Source: Patescibacteria group bacterium (GTDB taxonomy: Bacteria > Patescibacteriota > Minisyncoccia > Minisyncoccales > RBG-13-36-15). From it: DNA of 64,000 nt. Position numbers and translations under genes: made by a program. The notes under the pieces were generated by a model, which saw only the letters and a list, made by a program, of their open reading frames with translations, did not search any database and was not told the DNA's origin. Shown here piece by piece: positions 3,422 to 63,550 of this stretch (position 1 is its first letter; every line of letters begins with the position of its first letter). The stretch is from NCBI GenBank assembly GCA_018609195.1, contig JAHCSE010000001.1:9559-73558 (forward strand), written 5' to 3'.

Positions 3422-3655
3422 TTATCTTCTTTTCCCGAACTCTAACTCTTTTGTTATAACAGCTATCGCTTCCTCCCTGTTTTTAGCAAATCTTATCGTC
3501 TGACCGGAGACCCAGGCAGTCCATGGGCGCTGGCGCCAAGAGTAATGCGTTATACCAGTAAAAAATTCCCTCGGGAAGTTTTGCATTTGTTCCTTAGTAG
3601 GGTCTTCAATGATTTTTATCGTCCTCCCAGCCACTATTATCTCTCCTGGCTGCAT
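3422..3655 (-). CDS. hypothetical small protein (77 aa), cassette 2
   Basis: ORF with purine-rich SD (GGAAAGGGAGAG), its own promoter and terminator. GC-richer than the flanks. No family recognised. Confidence 0.55.
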   Translation of the reverse strand: MQPGEIIVAGRTIKIIEDPTKEQMQNFPREFFTGITHYSWRQRPWTAWVSGQTIRFAKNREEAIAVITKELEFGKRR

Positions 3656-13696: not shown

Positions 13697-14113
13697 TTAT
13701 CTTGGCAACACTTCAATTTTTTGTCCCTCTTTTATTTTGACTATTGCTTTTTTATATCCTTTTCTCCAGCCAGTTATTCTCCCTAATCTTCTCCTTTTTT
13801 GAGGAATCTTTATAATTTTAACATCTACGACCTTCACTCCATAAAGACCTTCAATTACCCTTTTAATCTCAATCTTATTAGATCTGGAATAAACTTTAAA
13901 AACGTATTGATTTTTTTTAGTCAAATCGGTAGCTTTCTCTGTGATATGGAGGGATTTTAATATTCGATAGGCATGAAGGGGAATTCCCTTTCTCTCAATT
14001 CTTTTTTCTTCTGGAGGAATTTCAGGTTCTCTCACTTCCTTCACCTTCTTTTCTGGAATTTCTCTTTTCTCTTTTTTAATTTTTTTCTTTCGAAAACGGT
14101 CTAAAATTCCCAT
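13697..14113 (-). CDS. rplW: 50S ribosomal protein L23 (N-terminal K/E-rich extension)
   Basis: L23 core (YVFKV...IKRVIEGLYGVKVVDVKII) preceded by about 45 extra residues. Confidence 0.88.
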   Translation of the reverse strand: MGILDRFRKKKIKKEKREIPEKKVKEVREPEIPPEEKRIERKGIPLHAYRILKSLHITEKATDLTKKNQYVFKVYSRSNKIEIKRVIEGLYGVKVVDVKIIKIPQKRRRLGRITGWRKGYKKAIVKIKEGQKIEVLPR

Positions 14114-14132
14114 ATTGTTATTACAGAGCGAA

Positions 14133-14271
14133 GTCGCTCGCCCTCCTCCAGCCTTTGGCTGGCGGTCGCCTTCGGCGACCTTCGGGCTCGCTCTTTAGAA
14201 ACCCTCGGTTTCTAACACTCGCTTCGCTTGCTGTTTTCCTACACGGGAGAACCTATGGTTCTCCCGACCCC
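14133..14271 (-). repeat. module A element, copy A1 (4 hairpins)
   Basis: Sense strand: GGGGTCGGGAGAAC-CATAG-GTTCTCCCGTGTAGGAAAACAG..TTAGAAACC-GAG-GGTTTCTAA..GTCGCC-GAA-GGCGAC..CCAGCC-AAA-GGCTGG..AGGAGGGCGAGCGAC. Confidence 0.85.
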
Positions 14272-14923
14272 TCTCCATTTTGGGCAGCAAATTGGGTTTC
14301 AGGAATGTCTCTTTTATTATATTTATTGATTCTTTAGGTATTAATAAATATTTGAAAGAAAGTAAGTCCAAGGGATTTAAATCTTTAGTCTGGGTAGTTT
14401 CTACTTTAGGAATATTTTTTGAGGCTCTAATGACAGCTTCCTCTTTTGTAGGAAGAGCAATCAAACAAGATGCTTTTTTTATTGGTAGATTATTTAAAAT
14501 CTCAACAATCAATTTTGTCTTTGGTTTATCTAATTTTAAAGAATCCAAAAGAACTATTAAATTTTCTTTAGCTTTCGTTGATAATACCATAAACAAAGCT
14601 TTTCTTCTCATTTTTTTAGGAATTTTTTGCTTAAAAACTCTCGTTTTTCTTGGTCCAAAAGTGATTCCTCCTCCTCGCCAGATTGGAGAACGAATAGAGC
14701 CTGCCCTCGCTCTCCCTGTTCCTTTTTGCCGCCAGGGTTTTCTTCCTCCACCCCGAACCTCAGCTCTAATTTTGGTATGAGCGATAGGAATCCTTCTATT
14801 TGCCATCTGGCTCACCACTACCTGATGTACTAAATCAGGATTGATTTTCACATCAAAAATTTCTTTTGGTAATGAAGTTTTCCCAACTTCTTTTCCTTCT
14901 TGATTGTAAGTCTTAATAAACAT
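14195..14923 (-). CDS. rplD: 50S ribosomal protein L4 (C-terminus reads into repeat A1)
   Basis: L4 motifs (RGGGRKPWRQKGTGRAR). There is no stop before the repeat, so the last ~25 codons (..ERGRENHRFSRVGKQQAKRVLETEGF) are encoded by element A1. Confidence 0.9.
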   Translation of the reverse strand: MFIKTYNQEGKEVGKTSLPKEIFDVKINPDLVHQVVVSQMANRRIPIAHTKIRAEVRGGGRKPWRQKGTGRARAGSIRSPIWRGGGITFGPRKTRVFKQKIPKKMRRKALFMVLSTKAKENLIVLLDSLKLDKPKTKLIVEILNNLPIKKASCLIALPTKEEAVIRASKNIPKVETTQTKDLNPLDLLSFKYLLIPKESINIIKETFLKPNLLPKMERGRENHRFSRVGKQQAKRVLETEGF

Positions 14924-14931
14924 AAGTTAAT

Positions 14932-15080
14932 AGCGAGGGTAAGTTTTTCAAAGAGCATCTCGGAGGCATCGCTGGCATGGTGTCCGAGCGCAACGAGGAA
15001 CAGCGACGCCGAGAGTTGAACAAAATTTTCCTCGCTGGGGAAAATTATTGTGTCTCTTTGAGGAAGCTTTGCCCGAACGC
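14932..15080 (-). repeat. module B element, copy B1 (149 nt)
   Basis: About 91% identical (13 mismatches by eye) to 20288..20436. Fills the whole rplC-rplD spacer. Imperfect terminal inverted repeats GCGTTCGGGCAAAGC / GCTTACCCTCGCT. Confidence 0.85.
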
Positions 15081-15674: not shown

Positions 15675-15873
15675 ACTTTCCTACGAATTACTCTATCGCT
15701 AAGCGACTCCCCGGAGGGTTGATATTTGCGAATATACGAATAATAATTTTCCAACAAAATACCGGGCACTAACCCGGTACTTTATTTTGTAGGTTAGTTA
15801 ATTTTATAATTTTATAAATTTTTGAAATAATTATTTCTTATCATAATGAGATAAAAAATATATTCGTAGGTAT

Positions 15874-15900
15874 CTACATTTTTATTTCGATATCACCTCC
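15874..15900 (-). repeat. orphan duplicate of the last 8 codons + stop of rpsJ
   Basis: ctacatttttatttcgatatcacctcc versus 16010..16036 ctacatttttatttcgatgtcaactcc (25/27 identical). Lies on the far side of element A2. Confidence 0.85.
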
Positions 15901-15990
15901 GTCGCTCCGCTCCTTAGAAACCCGCGGTTTCTAACGCTCGCTTCACTCGCTGTTTTCCTACACGGGGAGACACCCAGTCTCCCCGACCCC
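15901..15990 (-). repeat. module A element, copy A2 (short form, hairpins 1-2)
   Basis: Sense: GGGGTCGGGGAGAC-TGGGT-GTCTCCCCGTGTAGGAAAACAG..TTAGAAACC-GCG-GGTTTCTAA-GGAGCGGAGCGAC. Confidence 0.85.
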
Positions 15991-16009
15991 TTCTGTGCGG
16001 AGTTGCCAT

Positions 16010-16354
16010 CTACATTTTTATTTCGATGTCAACTCCGGCTGGTAAATTTAAATTCATCAGAGAATCGATCACTTTTGAGCTAGGATTTAAAATATCAATG
16101 AGTCTTTTGTGAATTCTCGTTTCAAACTGTTCTCGGGCATCTTTGTGGATAAAAGAAGATCTATTGACGGTGTATTTGTGAATTTCAGTTGGTAAGGGGA
16201 CAGGTCCCGAGACCTCCGCCCCATATCTTAAAACAGTCTCCACAATCTGCCGAGCACTGCTATCTATAACTTTGTGGTCATAGGCTTTAAGCCTTATCCT
16301 AATCCTTGGCTTAACTTCTTCCTCAATTTCTTTTGATTTTTCCTTAACTTTCAT
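16010..16354 (-). CDS. rpsJ: 30S ribosomal protein S10
   Basis: 114 aa; [15 protein letters not shown] and [14 protein letters not shown] motifs. N-terminal K/E extension. Confidence 0.94.
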
Positions 16355-17748: not shown

Positions 17749-17776
17749 ATCTTAGTAAACCCTGAAAAATAGTCAA
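17749..17776 (-). promoter_or_regulatory. candidate sigma70-like promoter for tuf
   Basis: Minus strand TTGACT-N16-TAAGAT about 90 nt upstream of the tuf ATG. Confidence 0.4.
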
Positions 17777-17847: not shown

Positions 17848-17925
17848 CTATTTCCTCTTTCCCTCAATGATCTCCTGAGTAATATTCTGAGGTACTTCTC
17901 CGTAATGGTCGAATTCCATCGTAAA
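17848..17925 (-). pseudogene. orphan second copy of the last 25 codons + stop of fusA
   Basis: Encodes [25 protein letters not shown] versus the fusA end [25 protein letters not shown] (22/25 aa identical, 54/78 nt identical). Confidence 0.85.
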
Positions 17926-18089
17926 GTCGCTCCGCTCCTCCAGTCTTCGGCTGGCGCTCCCCGCCAACATCTTCGAAGTTGTGGCGGGTCGCTTCGCTCC
18001 GCTCCCCAGACACCTCTCGGTTTCTGGCGGTCGTCGCTTCGCTCCTCCCTGTTTTCCTACACGGGAAAACACCCAGTTTTCCCGACCCC
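17926..18089 (-). repeat. module A element, copy A3
   Basis: Sense: GGGGTCGGGAAAAC-TGGGT-GTTTTCCCGTGTAGGAAAACAG..CCAGAAACC-GAGA-GGTGTCTGG..two further hairpins..GGAGCGGAGCGAC. Confidence 0.85.
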
Positions 18090-18120
18090 TTTCTGCTTCA
18101 CTATGGAGTTTTATCTAAAA

Positions 18121-20256
18121 TTATCTCCGTTTGCCTTCTATAATTTCTTGTGCGATGTTCCCTGGCACTTCACCGTAGTGATCAAACTCCATAGTAAACG
18201 TTCCTCGGCCTTCGGTCATCGATCGCAAAGCTGTGGCATAACCAAACATCTCAGCCAGAGGAACTTTAGCTGAAATTATTTTCAAATTTAACCTATCTTT
18301 TGTTTCTTCAATCTTCCCCCTCCTCGCTCCTAAATCCCCAATAGTATCTCCAAAAAATTCAGAAGGAATAATTACTTCTAATCTCATTATCGGTTCAAGT
18401 AAAATAGGTTTTGCTCTTTTGGCGGCCGTTTGCAAAGCAGCAGATGCAGCTATCTTGAAAGCAAATTCTGAGGAATCAACCTCATGATAGGAACCATCAT
18501 AAAGAGTCACTTCGATGTCAACCATAGGATAGCCTGCAGTTATCCCTTTTTCCATAGCTTCCTTCACTCCTTTTTTCACAGCGGGGATAAATTCTTTTGG
18601 GATGATTCCTCCTTTAATCTCGTCGATAAATTCAAATCCCTCTCCTCGTGTTTTGGGCCGAATTTTCAAGAAAACATGACCATATTGGCCTCTGCCGCCT
18701 GATTGTCTAATATATTTTCCTTCAGCTGAAGTTTCCTCTTTTATTGTTTCTTTATAGGCAACCTGAGGTCTTCCGGATGAAGCTTCCACCTTAAATTCTC
18801 TTCTCATTCGATCATTAATTATCTCTAAATGGAGCTCCCCCATTCCTGAGATAATAGTTTCTCCCGTTTCTAAATCACTTTTAATTTTAAAAGTGGGGTC
18901 TTCCTCAGCCAATCTTTTCAAAGCTAAACTCATTTTCTCTTGGTCGGCCTTCGTTTTCGGTTCAATTCGAATGGAAATGACAGGTTCTGGAAAGGTAATT
19001 TTTTCTAAGACAATGGGGTTATCAGGGTCACAAAGAGTATGACCAGTACTAGTTTTTTTTAATCCAACCGTAGCCCCAATATCTCCAGCGAAAAACTCTT
19101 GTACTTCCTCACGATCTGCCGCATGCATCCTTAAAATTCTCCCAATTCTCTCTTTCTCGCCCGTAGTTGCATTTAATACATAAGAACCTCTTTTTAAGCT
19201 ACCTGCATAAACTCGGAAATAATTTAAAGTTCCAACATAAGGATCAGCAGCAGATTTAAAAACCAAAGCGGAAAATGATTCTGAATCTAAAACTTTTCTT
19301 TCAATTTCCTGACCATTTCGAGGATCAACTCCTCTCACCGGAGGTAAATCCAAGGGGCTAGGCAAAAAATTCACAATTCCATCTAAGAGAGGCTGAATTC
19401 CTTTATTTCTCAAAGCTGATCCACAAAATACCGGGATGAGTTTGTAGGAAATTGTGGCTTTTCTCAATACTTCTCTCAATTCATTGATTGAAATTTCCTT
19501 TTTGGCTAAGTATTTCTCTAAAAGTTTCTCATCTTCAGCTGCAATTTTCTCCACTAATTTTTCTCGCCACTCTTTAGCGATCTTGCGCAAATTTTCAGGT
19601 ATCTCTTCTTCAACAACATTCTGGCCAAAGTCACCTTCAAATTTTAAGGCTCGCATTGTAAAGAGATCAATCACTCCTTCAAAATTTTCCTCGCTACCAA
19701 TTGGTAATTGAAGAACCACCGCCTGGGGAGATAATTTTTCCCAAATTGATTGCAAGCTCTTTTCAAAAGAAGCTCCTGTCCTATCCATTTTATTGATAAA
19801 GCAAATTCTGGGAACAGAAAATCTATCTGCTTGATGCCATACCGTCTCAGATTGAGGTTCTACTCCTGCTACTCCATCGAAAATCACTACCGCCCCATCC
19901 AAAACTCGCAAAGATCTTTGTACTTCCGCTGTAAAATCAATATGGCCAGGAGTATCAATAATGTTTATTCGATACTCATCTTTTTTGCTTTTTTCTTTGG
20001 ATTGACCGGGGGCGGTGTGTGGGTGATAGGTGGATGGAGTCCAAAAACAAGTAGTGGCTGCAGCTGTAATAGTAATTCCCCTTTCTTTTTCTTGAATCAT
20101 CCAATCCATTATTGCCTCCCCTTCATGAACTTCTCCAATTTTATGAGAAATTCCAGTATAGAAAAGCACCCGCTCAGTAACGGTTGTTTTCCCAGCATCG
20201 ATATGAGCAATAATACCAATATTGCGAGTTCGTTCTATTGGATACAAACGAGGCAT
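18121..20256 (-). CDS. fusA: elongation factor G
   Basis: [17 protein letters not shown] and NKMD motifs; 711 aa. Confidence 0.97.
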
Positions 20257-20287: not shown

Positions 20288-20436
20288 AGCGAGGGTAAGC
20301 TTCTCAAAGAGCATCTCGGAGGCGTCGCTGGCAAGGTGTCCGAGTAAAGCGAGGAACAGCGACGCCGAGAGTTGAACAAAATTTTCCTCGCTGGGAAAAA
20401 TTATTGTGTCTCTTTGAGGGGGCTTTGCCCGAGCGA
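20288..20436 (-). repeat. module B element, copy B2 (149 nt)
   Basis: See B1. Contains a 10-bp stem GGCGTCGCTG/CAGCGACGCC and a long-range stem CTCAAAGAG/CTCTTTGAG. Confidence 0.85.
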
Positions 20437-20452
20437 ATCACCAAGCCAAATG

Positions 20453-20603
20453 GTCGCTCGCCCTCCTCCAGCGCAGAGCGCTGGCGGACGCCTTTGGCGT
20501 CCTTCGGGCTCACTCCCCAGACACCTCTCGGTTTCTGGCGCTCCTTCGCTTTCGCTCAGTCACTGTTTTCCTATACGGGGAAACACCCAGTTTCCCCGAC
20601 CCC
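20453..20603 (-). repeat. module A element, copy A4
   Basis: Sense: GGGGTCGGGGAAAC-TGGGT-GTTTCCCCGTATAGGAAAACAG..CCAGAAACC-GAGA-GGTGTCTGG..GACGCC-AAA-GGCGTC..CCAGCGC-TCT-GCGCTGG..AGGAGGGCGAGCGAC. Confidence 0.85.
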
Positions 20604-20609
20604 TTTCTG

Positions 20610-20635
20610 CCACTTTGCGTTACCACGCAAAGTGG
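20610..20635 (-). promoter_or_regulatory. 10-bp hairpin enclosing the rpsG stop codon
   Basis: CCACTTTGCG-TGGTAA-CGCAAAGTGG on the sense strand. The stop codon is in the loop, and the 3' arm abuts element A4. Confidence 0.7.
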
Positions 20636-21501: not shown

Positions 21502-21618
21502 AAACCCTACGAATTACGAATCAGTACGAATATACGAATAAATTTCCCCGACCCCTTCCGACGTGGGCTGCTATTTCTGTTTCGCAGACAATAGTAACAT
21601 TATCCTCTCAAAAATAAT

Positions 21619-22697: not shown

Positions 22698-22770
22698 CGG
22701 GGCATAGTGTAATGGTTAACATTTGCGCATGGGGTGCGTAAGATTCTGGGTTCGAATCCCAGTGCCCCGA
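22698..22770 (+). tRNA. tRNA-Pro (anticodon GGG)
   Basis: Manual cloverleaf: acceptor CGGGGCA/TGCCCCG, D arm GTGT-AATGGTTA-ACAT, anticodon arm TGCGC-ATGGGGT-GCGTA, T arm CTGGG-TTCGAAT-CCCAG, discriminator A. CCA is not encoded. Confidence 0.88.
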
Positions 22771-26219: not shown

Positions 26220-26298
26220 TGATTTTATTATAACGAACTATGTTCGATATATCACGCTGCGCGTGCTATAGGTTAGTTTATTGTGATTGAAAACAAAA

Positions 26299-26317
26299 AA
26301 CCGCCTTCTTGGCGATT
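26299..26317 (-). terminator. family terminator AATCGCCAAGAAGGCGGTT(T)n, copy a
   Basis: 7-bp stem AATCGCC/GGCGGTT, loop AAGAA, then a T-run. Downstream of 26339..26704. Confidence 0.6.
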
Positions 26318-26338
26318 AGAATGGTATTTTAGTAACTT

Positions 26339-26704
26339 TTATTTTTTATACCTTCGTTCATTAGTTTTATAACCAGTATCTGATGACCAAATAAGAAACA
26401 GCCTCTTTTTAAACCCTCCCTTAATCTTTGTACCCTCTTTCTGGGCATTTTTTATTTGCTGATTTGTAATTCCCTTAAATCTCTTTATTTCCTGAACAAC
26501 ATCTAAAACATCGGCTAACTCTGAAATCAATTTCTTTTTAGTTTTTGCGGCAAGTAAACCGTCTGCTTCTTCCCCTACTTTTTTTATGAGTTCTTTTTCA
26601 AAATCTTTTGCGTTTAATTTTCTTATTTTAAAATCGCCCCCGCTCTTTTTAATCTTTTCTGGTATTTTGTCACGAATTAGCTTATTGTAGCATATCTTTT
26701 TCAT
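26339..26704 (-). CDS. MazG-like nucleoside triphosphate pyrophosphohydrolase
   Basis: 121 aa; YNKLIRDKIPEKI N-terminus and EEADGL...ELADVLDV helices. Confidence 0.65.
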   Translation of the reverse strand: MKKICYNKLIRDKIPEKIKKSGGDFKIRKLNAKDFEKELIKKVGEEADGLLAAKTKKKLISELADVLDVVQEIKRFKGITNQQIKNAQKEGTKIKGGFKKRLFLIWSSDTGYKTNERRYKK

Positions 26705-26722
26705 TATTTCATTCTATCAAAA

Positions 26723-26741
26723 AACCGCCTTCTTGGCGATT
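26723..26741 (-). terminator. family terminator, copy b
   Basis: Identical 19-mer aaccgccttcttggcgatt. Downstream of 26823..27479. Confidence 0.6.
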
Positions 26742-26822
26742 TTTTTGTGGCTTCATCTATGAAAAGAAAAAGGCGACACGATAACCTCGGGTCGCCACTA
26801 AAAAAGAACAATTATAGTTTTG

Positions 26823-27479
26823 TTATTCAAGCCTATAATCCATAATATCCAAGAACCAATAACCTTCCATTTTAACTGGCCTGCTTTTCAGTATCCTTAT
26901 TTTCTTCTTAAATAGCGGGCCATCTACTACAAGGGTATGGTATTCGCCGTTCTCACCGCAAGGGTCAATATGTTTATATGCTCTCAAGTCTTTAAGAAAT
27001 TCCATATCCAGTCTTCTTCCAATCCACTCTTCACCAAGAAGACTTGCTTGGGTGCTTACTATTATTGCCTCAAATCCCGAATCTATGAATTCTAAAAGAA
27101 TTTCTTCTGGATTGCGACCCCAGAGAGGTTCAACCAACCGAAGACCGAGTTCTCCGCAAATCTTCTCTGCCCACTCTAAACAGTGCTGGAGGTGAATATC
27201 ACCAAAGACCATTCCCGATACTCCTCCTGGAAGCAATCTCCGCACGGCTTCCTTAAATTCTTGTTCGTATCCATCGGGCGTAGTCTCTACTTGCAAAATG
27301 GGAATACCCATTACTTGGGCTTGTGTTTGGATAAGCCCGGCTTCTATGCCGTGGAATCGGACACGCTTGAATTCTCTGGAAATAGTGTTGAAGAGATACG
27401 AAATATCATATCCTTCACGCTTTGCCTTATAGACGGCAAGGCAACTATCTTTGCCGCCGCTCCAAGAGGAAATATACAT
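26823..27479 (-). CDS. Dph6/MJ0570-type PP-loop ATP pyrophosphatase
   Basis: 218 aa with SWSGGKDS PP-loop. Paralog of 34119..34805. Confidence 0.7.
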   Translation of the reverse strand: MYISSWSGGKDSCLAVYKAKREGYDISYLFNTISREFKRVRFHGIEAGLIQTQAQVMGIPILQVETTPDGYEQEFKEAVRRLLPGGVSGMVFGDIHLQHCLEWAEKICGELGLRLVEPLWGRNPEEILLEFIDSGFEAIIVSTQASLLGEEWIGRRLDMEFLKDLRAYKHIDPCGENGEYHTLVVDGPLFKKKIRILKSRPVKMEGYWFLDIMDYRLE

Positions 27480-27728
27480 TTTTCTCTTCCCTCCTTAACT
27501 GCAGATGTATTTTAAGTTAATTTAGATATTTGTAAAGAGTTAGGTTATATAGATTTTCACAAAAACAATCATTCAATAAAGAGTGGCGTTTTATTTTTTT
27601 AGGCTCCCAGACGGCGACTCAAACCCTTAAACCCTCACCTCCAACTCAAATTTAAGCCAATTATTGGACCATTGTCTATGGTCTCTCAGATTACGAACGG
27701 TGGTCTACTAATGGTTATTAAGGATAAA

Positions 27729-27747
27729 AACCGCCTTCTTGGCGATT
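27729..27747 (-). terminator. family terminator, copy c
   Basis: Identical 19-mer. Downstream of 27842..28087. Confidence 0.55.
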
Positions 27748-27841
27748 AAGTTGGCTCCCCAGTCTAAATCTTATTATAATTTTGGAGGATTGGGAATATG
27801 TGCAACATCTAAGAAATCGGGTAAGTGGTCTGACTCCCAAC

Positions 27842-28087
27842 TCATACCTGTAGAAAAACCCCAAAGAACTGAAGGCCAAATCCAATAGTAAAAAGGATAA
27901 AGCCAACTTTTCCCAACTTCCTACCTTTTAGGTGTCTCTTTTGCTTGTAATTACCTTTGTGATCCATATCTACGATAAGATCATCATCGACATTCTCATG
28001 TGCTCGCAAATAAGGATATAGCATCACTAACGATGCCGCTGTATTAAATAAGAGTCCTACCAAAATTAAAATGATAGAAAGGTCCAC
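27842..28087 (-). CDS. small two-TM membrane protein
   Basis: 81 aa; two hydrophobic helices flank a charged loop (ENVDDDLIVDMDHKGNYKQKRHLKGRK). Lies 5 nt after the 28093 gene. Confidence 0.5.
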   Translation of the reverse strand: MDLSIILILVGLLFNTAASLVMLYPYLRAHENVDDDLIVDMDHKGNYKQKRHLKGRKLGKVGFILFTIGFGLQFFGVFLQV

Positions 28088-28092
28088 AAATT

Positions 28093-28917
28093 TTATTCTT
28101 TAACCCGTGGAATTAAATCTTTTAACGACTGCTCATCCATTGGCCCAGCAAACTCAACAAGAATGTTATCTACTTCCTTATAACTCTCCGGGTCTTTTAA
28201 CTCCATGTAAGTCATTTTCAAAGCAATTAAAGTGGTCACCATAGCATTTTTTAGAGCCTCCATATTTCTCAAGGTATAATGTGCACCGCCATACCTATTC
28301 CAATCAAAATCTTCATTGAAAACATCTACACTATCCAAAAGTGCGGCGTAAGAACAATGTGTATACTTAGAAAAACCTCTATATACATCTGTGGCCATGC
28401 TGTAAGGTGACAAACCATGCTCTTCCACAGATTTAATGGATCCCTTCTTAATAAATTCATCTGACAACCGGCGAGCTACTCTATTCGTAATTATTTCACC
28501 CTCAAACCATTTTTTAAGATGCGTCTGTTCTTTGTCTAAATGAAATGTGTGAATTAGATCTAAATTTTCGTTGATTGATCGAGTCAACTCCATTATCTCA
28601 AAGTTATATCCTCTCCTAGCTAAAAGAAAAATTGCCTCCCATGTCTGAAGTACCTTCCCATATATTAAGTAAACAGCGCACAGAGTGGTTTGTTCTGATA
28701 TCTCCGGTATTAGACTTTTTAATTTTCTAACTTTCTCCTCTATCTGAAAGTGAATAGACTCCAATCCTTTTAACTTTTCTTGAATGTCCTGCAAATCTTT
28801 TCCTTGTTGTTGTTGAGGATAAGATGGATTCTGCTCAAAATATTTCCTCCCTCTGTGCGCCCTCATCTTAGCAACACGATCTTGAATAAGCTGCTTTATT
28901 TTTTCATCGAGACTCAT
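28093..28917 (-). CDS. hypothetical protein (274 aa)
   Basis: ORF trimmed to MSLDEKIKQL (ATG ending at 28917), because the track's TTG-start extension runs across the family terminator at 28938. No family recognised. Confidence 0.5.
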   Translation of the reverse strand: MSLDEKIKQLIQDRVAKMRAHRGRKYFEQNPSYPQQQQGKDLQDIQEKLKGLESIHFQIEEKVRKLKSLIPEISEQTTLCAVYLIYGKVLQTWEAIFLLARRGYNFEIMELTRSINENLDLIHTFHLDKEQTHLKKWFEGEIITNRVARRLSDEFIKKGSIKSVEEHGLSPYSMATDVYRGFSKYTHCSYAALLDSVDVFNEDFDWNRYGGAHYTLRNMEALKNAMVTTLIALKMTYMELKDPESYKEVDNILVEFAGPMDEQSLKDLIPRVKE

Positions 28918-28937
28918 ATATATAATTCTAACAAAAA

Positions 28938-28956
28938 AACCGCCTTTTTGGCAATT
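28938..28956 (-). terminator. family terminator, copy d (variant)
   Basis: aaccgcctttttggcaatt. Downstream of the 29072..29224 gene. Confidence 0.5.
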
Positions 28957-35679: not shown

Positions 35680-35826
35680 AAAAATGTGTCCTCCTCCGTT
35701 AAAACTTTGGAGGACATGGATGGCATTCTGACTTTCACAGTTACGGCATAGTCCCGGATTTCCTGCCCGCATCGCTATACGAAGTATTGCAGGCGGGTCA
35801 CCGGAGTTCCCCATCCGTTTTCAAAG
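35680..35826 (-). promoter_or_regulatory. cobalamin riboswitch with terminator expression platform
   Basis: Sense strand: GGATGGGGAACTCCGGTGA...GGAAATCCGGGACTATGCCGTAACTGTGAAAGTCAGAATGCCATCC (B12-box-like AGTCAGAATGCC; P1 stem GGATGG/CCATCC). This is followed by the hairpin TGTCCTCC...GGAGGACA and T7. Confidence 0.78.
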
Positions 35827-35837
35827 TCCGTTAATAA

Positions 35838-57404: not shown

Positions 57405-57457
57405 GTGTATTTTTCCACAAGAGTTCTCATTGTTTTGTTTTGTATAGAGATATAAAA

Positions 57458-57476
57458 AACCGCCTTCTCGACGATT
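57458..57476 (-). terminator. family terminator, copy e (variant)
   Basis: aaccgccttctcgacgatt. Downstream of 57515..57700. Confidence 0.5.
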
Positions 57477-63346: not shown

Positions 63347-63390
63347 TCTCTTTTATTGTATTGGAATTTTAATTCCGATACAACACAGGA

Positions 63391-63512
63391 GGGGTCGGGA
63401 GGATTGGGTATCCTCCCGTATAGGAAAACAGGCTTTCAGGTGAGCGAAGCGAAGACTGAAAACGTTAGAAACCGTGGGTGTCTAAAGAACATGGTGCCGA
63501 GCGTTAGCGAGG
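63391..63512 (+). repeat. module A element, copy A6 (opposite orientation)
   Basis: Plus strand: GGGGTCGGGAGGAT-TGGGT-ATCCTCCCGTATAGGAAAACAG..GAGCGAAGCGAAG..TTAGAAACC-GTG-GGTGTCTAA.. Confidence 0.8.
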
Positions 63513-63550
63513 TCTATGTTCTTATACCGCATTTTATTCACAAACAAAAA

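Follow-up and report, generated by a model that had tools for sequence, protein, structure and literature searches.

A probable gene-end replacement cassette built on a small structured element at the 3′ end of fusA in a Patescibacteria genome

The 3′ end of fusA, the gene for elongation factor G (EF-G), is present twice in a 64,000-nucleotide (nt) stretch of contig JAHCSE010000001.1 from a Patescibacteria group bacterium, with a copy of a small non-coding element, here called element E, between the two ends. This stretch is referred to as the window, and its own genome or locus as W. The proximal gene end was named tail1 and the distal one tail2; L followed by a number denotes a comparison locus, which for the relatives was an 8-kb stretch, and L alone denotes a short arm in front of E. 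We put the probability at roughly three in four that 18198..17926 is an inserted non-coding gene-end replacement cassette that was placed exactly before the native tail, and that tail2 is an untranslated relic. Since the cassette would bring its own gene end and stop codon, the EF-G gene stays intact. The features of the locus are as follows.

18121..20256, minus strand: fusA (EF-G) in its now-translated form, 711 amino acids in the list of open reading frames (ORFs), the last 25 codons being the putatively imported tail
18121..18198, minus strand: tail1, the putative imported gene end and first part of the cassette, 25 codons plus TAA, identity 0.88 to L002 against 0.74 to L001
18112..18120, minus strand: trailer after the imported stop, 9 nt, read directly, unlike the native trailer behind tail2
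18097..18111, minus strand: L, the guide-like arm AAACTCCATAGTGAA, 15 nt long and, with one G-U, reverse-complementary to the opening 15 nt of tail1
17926..18096, minus strand: element E, copy A3, with its core at 17999..18093 and then GC-rich hairpin modules ending in GGAGCGGAGCGAC; 87.5 bits, E=4e-21
17848..17925, minus strand: tail2, the displaced, probably native end of fusA, which runs on into the native spacer and the tuf promoter, 71/78 identical to L001

The inserted block of 273 nt consists of tail1 with its stop, the trailer, L and E. Within it, AAACTCCATAGT (18111..18100) is the exact reverse complement of ACTATGGAGTTT (18195..18184), and the helix extends to 15 bp, including one G-U, between 18198..18184 and 18111..18097. 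The 3′ boundary GGAGCGGAGCGAC (17938..17926) abuts tail2, and this 13-mer occurs seven times in the window against 0.02 expected, so its recurrence is not due to chance. The two tails are identical at 54/78 nucleotides and 22/25 amino acids; their 24 differences fall on codon positions 1, 2 and 3 as 3/2/19, and 19 codons were changed synonymously. These tail coordinates, the 12-nt inverted match, the boundary and the near-synonymous divergence (about 19 of 24 differences) had been reported in the initial annotation, and a recount reproduced all of them. A promoter-like site at 17776..17749, in the tuf promoter region, lies downstream of tail2. The possibility that the duplication came from misassembly had also been raised there. 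The two-tail layout is not an assembly artefact, because an independent Logan assembly (L225, SRR5189788) reproduced the left junction base for base, from the sequence X in front of the tail through tail1, its stop and L to the start of E, before breaking inside the repeat, and because the same architecture was found at the fusA site in five other assemblies (L006, L009, L019, L154 and L201).

The closest relative found, L001, whose EF-G (P0001) is 92% identical to that of W, has an uninterrupted fusA without the element. The host bacterium of the window is Nealsonbacteria-like. From the tail through the spacer to the tuf promoter region, L001 is collinear with tail2 of W and the sequence downstream of tail2, and the spacers are orthologous. 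The insertion-free allele that the initial annotation proposed to look for among related fusA loci was thereby found, and its tail is of the distal type. When identity was profiled along the 3′ part of fusA in 78-nt windows, the gene body of W was 0.87-1.00 identical to L001 and 0.73-0.82 to L002, the relative with 85% identical EF-G (P0002). At tail1 the values were 0.74 to L001 and 0.88 to L002, and at tail2 they were 0.91 to L001 (71/78) and 0.74 to L002. The identity pattern thus reverses at tail1 and returns to that of the body at tail2, which argues that tail2 is native and tail1 foreign. A second, independent pair of sites consisted of L154, which is filled, and L085, which is empty; their upstream regions were identical at 181/200 positions, and tail2 of L154 matched the native L085 tail at 76/78. 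A GGC glycine codon was common to tail1 of W, L154 and L009 and occurred in none of the native tails. Judged from these sequence comparisons, the distal tail is the resident end, and the proximal, translated tail would have arrived from another lineage together with E. The earlier proposal that one tail had come in with the element from a distant fusA allele was right about the import and is corrected here in its direction, the proximal translated copy being the probable import and the distal copy the native end (L001, L154/L085).

An ordinary target-site duplication, with the copies diverging in place, tail1 under selection for the protein and tail2 neutral or occasionally homogenised, was weighed against import and seems to us improbable by a wide margin. 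Perfect or near-perfect duplications of 66-113 nt do flank other copies of E (L019a, L024 and L201), and the lengths vary from 15 to 113 nt, as would be the case for staggered or replicative insertion. However, tail2 in W differs by only 9% from the native L001 tail, so the insertion is young, yet the two tails are 31% apart and tail1 is nearest to the allele of another lineage. Neutral decay of tail2 would not be almost purely synonymous, and the trailers that are carried are unlike the resident trailers. These distances bear out the initial remark that a decaying duplication does not fit.

The tail peptide was nearly invariant among 120 EF-G homologues, so alleles of two lineages are expected to differ mainly synonymously, and a lineage difference under an invariant peptide suffices to explain the near-synonymous divergence. 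On the import reading the tails differ in this way because each was a working fusA end in a separate lineage until the transfer. Counting only positions with the same residue in both tails, 19/22 codons differed between tail1 and tail2 of W and 21/23 in L006, while 55 native-native pairs from diverged lineages, drawn from a small set of native tails and non-independent lineages, had a mean of 0.54 differing (sd 0.12, max 0.83). A simulation from genome codon usage gave 10.5 ± 2.2 of 21 codons where 18/21 were observed in W (P = 3e-4), and the matching simulation for L006 gave P = 1e-4. The longest identical run was 5 nt in both W and L006; the native-native mean was 11.4, and only 2/55 pairs were as low as 5. 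The tails of L009 and L154 were mosaics of identical blocks beside blocks in which nearly every codon differed, and those of L201 were identical, that is, fully homogenised. On these counts the tails of the two most diverged fusA cassettes (W and L006) are more different synonymously than unrelated native tails, and we tentatively suggest, with slightly more doubt than conviction, that a sieve against recombination is responsible. Tails resembling the resident end would be converted or deleted through the direct repeats; with similar-tail cassettes homogenised or lost in this way, the long-lived cassettes would be the strongly recoded ones.

A gene 3′ end that is repeated just downstream is also what the template and variable repeats of a diversity-generating retroelement (DGR) would look like, and DGRs are said to be common in the phylum Patescibacteria. 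The differences between the tails are not adenine-specific (A in tail1 at 8/24, A in tail2 at 8/24) and are synonymous rather than diversifying, and no reverse transcriptase was seen nearby when the N-termini in the window were inspected by eye. The probability of a DGR-like pair is therefore negligible, the substitution pattern refuting it.

The window contains five copies of element E: four follow rplD, rpsJ, fusA and rpsG, and the fifth is intergenic on the other strand. A word scan of species-representative genomes returned about 47 true copies, all from Patescibacteria, spanning Parcubacteria-type lineages and Saccharibacteria. The covariance model R1, built from 28 copies, detected the five copies in the window and 73 in the other Patescibacteria loci that were fetched. 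The core of E reads GGGGTCGGG-hairpin-CCCGTRTAGGAAAACAG ... YYAGAAACC-loop-GGTKTCTRR, with covarying helices to which copy A3 conforms, and its joining sequences are nearly invariant. In the two hairpins, 98% of the helix cells were paired, and double changes were found in 52 cells versus 13 in shuffles. The G-T/G-U pairs of E occur on the sense strand only, and GCGNAGC, whose form GCGAAGC is a very stable mini-hairpin as DNA, has seven occurrences in the 720 nt of E read in the sense direction, none in the antisense of E, and 16 in the window as a whole when both strands are counted. The sense strand is therefore the structured strand, as RNA or as single-stranded DNA. About 75% of the copies are co-oriented with their neighbours, and six are antisense to both.

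Rfam was scanned with gathering thresholds for the whole window and with E<=10 for the fusA locus; no family matched E, and one match was noise. When viral contigs were scanned with the E core word, there was one chance match only. A metagenome scan with the E/tail2 junction pattern returned 99 stretches, nearly all of them ordinary EF-G (..GD|FTMEF), and cassettes only in L154 and L201. No literature description of E was found by topic or by sequence string. The family is thus widespread in Patescibacteria and apparently undescribed, and the novelty that had been suggested for a non-coding element of about 160 nt looks right. An HDV-like (hepatitis delta virus-like) fold suggested by GGGGUCGG was rejected, as the required P1 partner is absent in the sequence. 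The other four copies in the window are the following.

14133..14275, minus strand: A1 at the rplD end, without a clear tail duplication, its 3′ flank running directly into the rplW start codon
15874..16036, minus strand: A2, rpsJ cassette, with tail1 GVDIEIKM and stop at 16036..16010, L at 16004..15997, E ending at 15901 and the displaced GGDIEIKM and stop at 15900..15874
20438..20634, minus strand: A4, rpsG cassette, with tail1 HFAW and stop at 20634..20620, L at 20619..20610, E at 20609..20453 and the displaced HLAW and stop at 20452..20438
63387..63520, plus strand: A5, intergenic and antisense to both neighbours, with its own 5′ hairpin GTATTGGAATT/AATTCCGATAC

The rpsG site of A4 is empty in L001, and the rpsJ site of A2 is empty in L002, whose protein ends in GVDIEIKM and stop. 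The A1 insertion is present in the 85% relative L002 as well and is therefore an older, shared insertion. At A1 the L4 frame (rplD, 14195-14923; 7825-8526 in L002) has no stop of its own and enters E, so that a C-terminal extension (..PKMERGRENHRFSRVGKQ..) is encoded by the conserved core. Upstream of rpsL, at 21547-21571, the window holds the 5′ stub of a truncated E, CCCACGTCGGAAGGGGTCGGGGAAA, and behind it the motif TTCGTATATTCGTACTGATTCGTAATTCGTAGG, which recurs upstream of rplC (~15690-15735) and in L002 (~2333-2365) and may be a conserved leader.

Approximately 30 of 76 E copies share the layout X-[A B]-L-E-[A* B*]-Y, in which the target, reaching from the insertion point to past the gene end, is present twice, as [A B] and as [A* B*], and L is the reverse complement of A. 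The targets were the fusA 3′ end at six sites (W and the five assemblies named above), the pgk 3′ end, at least 12 tRNA 3′ ends starting from the T arm, and rpsJ and rpsG in the window; these are highly conserved motifs, typical of homing targets. The duplications were 15-113 nt long and the inserts 136-273 nt. Displaced ends were damaged: F to L in rpsG, V to G in rpsJ compared with the family sequence GVDIEIKM, and interrupted or altered T loops in the tRNA copies. In tRNA and pgk cassettes (e.g. L096 and L043) the trailer of the proximal copy was unlike the resident trailer, and L096 held two nested cassettes whose trailers showed successive invasions. In L009, L still fits an ACG codon that has since been lost from tail1 by conversion.

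Several observations were made at individual loci. In tRNA cassettes (L025, L037, L052, L055, L063, L068; L054, L096, L110) the displaced T loop carries a GCGAAGCG-type mini-hairpin or a change of TTCGA to GTGAGA; these changes are at the same position in independent lineages, and the proximal tRNA copy is intact. The fusA gene of L019 bears E cassettes at both ends (1160-1251 and 3457-3533 of that locus). L019a is an antisense 5′ copy that duplicates 113 nt of promoter and first codons, including the G1 motif region, and L019b lies in sense orientation at the usual 3′ site. Another small structured element, distinct from E, was seen in the last fusA codons of L220 (3600-3900), the host of P0094, with a recoded duplicate gene end (attgaaggaaagagaaggtag versus attgaaggcaaaaggcgataa, both encoding IEGKRR and stop), and L222 (3670-3720) has what appears to be a short remnant of an L220-type element.

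The pairing partner of arm L is the opening 8-20 nt of the duplicated segment. The L:A helix had a mean length of 12 bp in 27 cassettes, compared with 6.1 in mismatched L/A controls, and in no cassette examined did L fit the distal copy better than the proximal one. In 15 well-defined cassettes the helix started at the junction nucleotide in seven and at offsets 0 to -2 in 12, and a constant ~3 nt separated the end of L from the conserved core. At its 3′ end, E abuts the target nucleotide whose pairing partner is the final base of L. Compared with L201, L019b has its L displaced by 3 nt, and its junction is displaced by an equal amount. No common motif or att core was found among the junction sequences of 17 cassettes. 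Because the junction follows the end of the L helix and the junctions share no motif, the insertion point appears to be set by base-pairing and not by a word read by a protein; as a mechanism, guide-defined insertion is somewhat favoured over other modes.

Pairing between an internal segment and the gene bears on another suggestion in the initial annotation, that the distal copy is an alternative or spliced 3′ exon. In such an intron-like arrangement 18198..17926 would be removed from the mRNA or used alternatively, tail2 would be a real 3′ exon, and both tails would be selected in place. X is joined to tail2 in frame by construction, L could pair alternately with A and A* and mark both junctions, most E copies are co-oriented with the target gene, and group I introns are common in Patescibacteria. 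In contrast, tail1 already supplies a complete end with a stop, so the host would gain nothing from splicing, and no intron or ribozyme family matched even at E<=10. E ends in C (..GAC) and not in G, and GUGYG...AY termini are lacking. In W, L pairs with A through 14 Watson-Crick pairs and one G-U over 15 positions but fits A* at only 11/15. Six copies run antisense to the genes on both sides, as L019a does to its target; damage is seen in the displaced ends at rpsG, rpsJ and many tRNA copies, and tail2 is accounted for by orthology with L001. Splicing or alternative use of the distal copy is thus very unlikely, and we did not retain it. Two other candidates were rejected. Translational bypass or read-through does not fit, because a second in-frame stop lies two codons past tail1 and the insert lengths are not consistently multiples of three. 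For an omegaRNA/TnpB-like arrangement, with E as scaffold and the native tail as 3′ guide, there was no common motif upstream of the junctions and no nuclease gene, and L would be unexplained.

The gene-end replacement reading can be extended to a pathway. A first [L E] insertion would duplicate its target, and the L:A helix would then mark the left end of the mobilised unit, with the consequence that the gene end would travel with the element. L would in this way act as a guide that fixes both the integration point in the recipient and the left boundary of the unit taken from the donor. The sense strand would be the active single strand, and the catalyst would act in trans. An excised or copied [tail-L-E] unit would show GAGCGAC joined to TTTACTATGG. 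Taken to its end, E would represent a new class of protein-less, self-guided homing element, with a programmable arm of 8-20 nt that selects the target, a structured single strand of ~100-170 nt that would enter conserved motifs of essential genes and tRNAs where the helix ends, and a rescue gene end selected for maximal nucleotide difference from the resident copy, moved by a trans factor or by incoming single-stranded DNA in natural transformation. This full picture is speculative, and we consider it rather unlikely.

Several points weigh against the cassette reading or parts of it. The left edge of the foreign tract is only bracketed, 1 to 8 nt upstream of tail1, and the true donor of tail1 is not among the sequences compared. 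No ORF-bearing, autonomous copy was present among ~78 E copies, the longer ones being nested non-coding insertions only, and the ORFs that overlap the insert are by-products of composition, including a 74-aa frame (17848..18072) running through E into tail2, which was treated as a by-product of GC-rich sequence. No enzyme was identified; the 64-kb window contained no obvious transposase, integrase or reverse transcriptase on inspection of N-termini by eye, with no profile search. The reading offers no account of where the L for each new target comes from. In L019a, L024 and L201 the duplications are identical, as they would be after de novo duplication of the target or, equally, after homing within a population. 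The excess dissimilarity of the tails comes from two cassettes and a small, non-independent native set and is suggestive only. Finally, around half of the E copies have no recognisable duplication; some of these have conserved flanks just upstream of start codons and others a conserved 5′ hairpin of their own, and because of these leader-like features E may also have, or may originally have had, a cis-acting role as a portable leader RNA. In L015, L016, L022, L036, L057, L066, L077, L095, L108, L114 and at 14100-14133 of the window, a 5′ flank CCCAYATCGGAAGGGG and a 3′ linker ..TTAGTATTACCACTATG were seen with no duplicated flank, and the linker runs directly into the start codons of unrelated genes (nusG, rpsU, rpiB-like and others).

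A stronger version of this idea holds that E is primarily a functional cis-acting RNA, for instance a leader or a processing or stability element, which is spread passively by homologous recombination after transformation and leaves the duplications as by-products. The strong conservation of core sequence and structure across the phylum, the position of approximately half of the copies directly upstream of start codons with a conserved linker (..TTACCACTATG), and the preference for the sense orientation (~75%) are in its favour, and Saccharibacteria are described as naturally competent in PMC10187176. It leaves unexplained, however, the target-specific arm L with a junction fixed to the end of its helix, the fact that essential genes are entered within their coding sequence at conserved motifs, and the foreign tracts that start within a few nt of the junction. 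The distribution is also patchy, E being at this site in 0/5 fusA loci reached by protein similarity. Although less remote than plain target duplication or splicing, a primarily cis-acting RNA is still an improbable account.

As a replacement gene end, the cassette has its closest precedent in systems of the e14/icd type, of which it looks like a new, tiny, non-coding and guide-bearing version. For e14 in Escherichia coli icd, the displaced native end icdC is described as remaining downstream as a pseudogene, with the two ends differing mostly synonymously (PMC13626634, citing Hill et al. 1989). In e14 and phage 21 in icd, and in islands at the 3′ ends of tRNA, transfer-messenger RNA or protein genes, the element likewise integrates into the 3′ portion of a gene, for which it provides a substitute end. 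At fusA, too, a displaced native end lies downstream and the gene is completed by sequence borne by the element (L001, L154/L085). In contrast to the e14 type, which has at least 15 kb, a tyrosine integrase and a fixed att core, the cassettes are 136-273 nt long, without a meaningful ORF or a shared core, and carry a target-specific inverted arm. Neither the 273-nt insert, in which no ORF is meaningful, nor any of the ~78 copies encodes a recombinase, and none was seen in the window in the same inspection by eye without profile search. In Allomyces atp6, a foreign gene end replaces the resident one. C-terminal duplications beside mitochondrial homing endonuclease genes are, by analogy, another near precedent: mobile ORFs of the GIY-YIG/LAGLIDADG types in fungal and algal mitochondria have a partial C-terminal copy of the host gene downstream of the insert, in atp6 or cob (PMC6279837). 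Those ORFs encode a homing endonuclease, whereas E is non-coding and has no linked nuclease.

The nearest mechanistic analogue, again by likeness, is the guide-plus-hairpin single-strand logic of IS200/IS605. These elements have subterminal hairpins and a single active strand, and their cleavage and target sites are chosen by short guide pairing beside the hairpin foot. E resembles them and the palindrome-associated transposable elements (PATEs) in its hairpins, its putative use of a single strand and its guide base-pairing. IS200/IS605 elements make no target duplication, combine a guide of 4-5 nt with a fixed target word, and depend on TnpA (Y1); in E the arm has 8-20 nt and the duplications 15-113 nt, and there is no common target word and no Rfam match to IS605-type RNA. 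The PATE hallmark, insertion 3′ of a fixed 4-5-nt word without target duplication, was not found for E. Exon recognition by introns is similar in that an internal segment pairs with the exon and the junction lies at the helix end. E differs from it in having no intron core, a guide that pairs 3′ of the insertion point, and a stop with a full gene end that makes splicing unneeded. There was no match to the group I intron family RF00028 even at E<=10, and E ends ..GAC; no group II intron family in Rfam matched, and 136-273 nt is far too small for six domains. No covariance-model match was obtained to HDV-like, hammerhead, twister, hatchet or pistol ribozymes.

In the CTX phage attP and integron attC sites, a hairpin of two inverted target-like copies mimics a duplex target; the exchange involves a single strand, and the insertion is then fixed by replication. 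The A-B-L hairpin of the cassette has the same form, but attP and attC are recognised by XerCD or IntI at conserved boxes, whereas the sequence of the cassette hairpin changes with each target. E is also like miniature inverted-repeat transposable elements (MITEs) and Rickettsia palindromic elements in being small, non-coding, structured and multi-copy, with some copies inside genes. Terminal inverted repeats and a fixed duplication length characterise MITEs, and the Rickettsia elements are in-frame insertions that are translated; neither kind supplies a new gene end. In E the only inverted pair is that of L with the target itself, and the duplications range over 15-113 nt.

Some other features of the window were recorded. 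The EF-G of W has a divergent segment at 19975-20040 (fusA codons 75-94) that is 10 residues longer than the LNLEKKKENE of the 92% relative. Since the lengths of EF-G homologues vary over 700-729 aa, this suggests a hypervariable insertion point in the G domain. A repeat family 'B' of 148 nt, 92% identical, is found on the minus strand at 14932-15079 (rplC/rplD) and 20288-20435 (between the rpsG cassette and fusA); a long hairpin is possible, and there was no Rfam match. A relative of repeat B follows the displaced fusA tail in the Saccharibacteria locus L006, and L001 holds only the last ~40 nt of B at the same place. Five AAAAAACCGCCTTCTTGGCGATT-like copies stand behind genes, at 26286-28956 and 57445-57476, and probably represent a shared terminator hairpin. 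The only Rfam matches at gathering score in the window were an AdoCbl-II cobalamin riboswitch (35713-35827, minus strand, 39.1 bits) and a tRNA (22698-22770, plus strand).

For annotation, the findings mean that the C-termini of essential Patescibacteria proteins can be imports, that pseudo-ends and pseudo-tRNA halves are to be expected downstream, and that short-read contigs break within E. Recoding beyond saturation would offer a natural test of the identity that is needed for recombination between direct repeats. The fixed geometry of arm and junction points to nucleic-acid-guided insertion by an element without genes, which, if confirmed, would be a new and possibly programmable principle of mobility. 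A self-guided E would, if true, be the natural counterpart of engineered 'home-and-rescue' gene drives. On the cassette reading, the smallest bacterial genomes would host a successful selfish element inside essential genes, namely those for EF-G, ribosomal proteins, tRNAs and phosphoglycerate kinase, and would do so harmlessly by means of a spare gene end.

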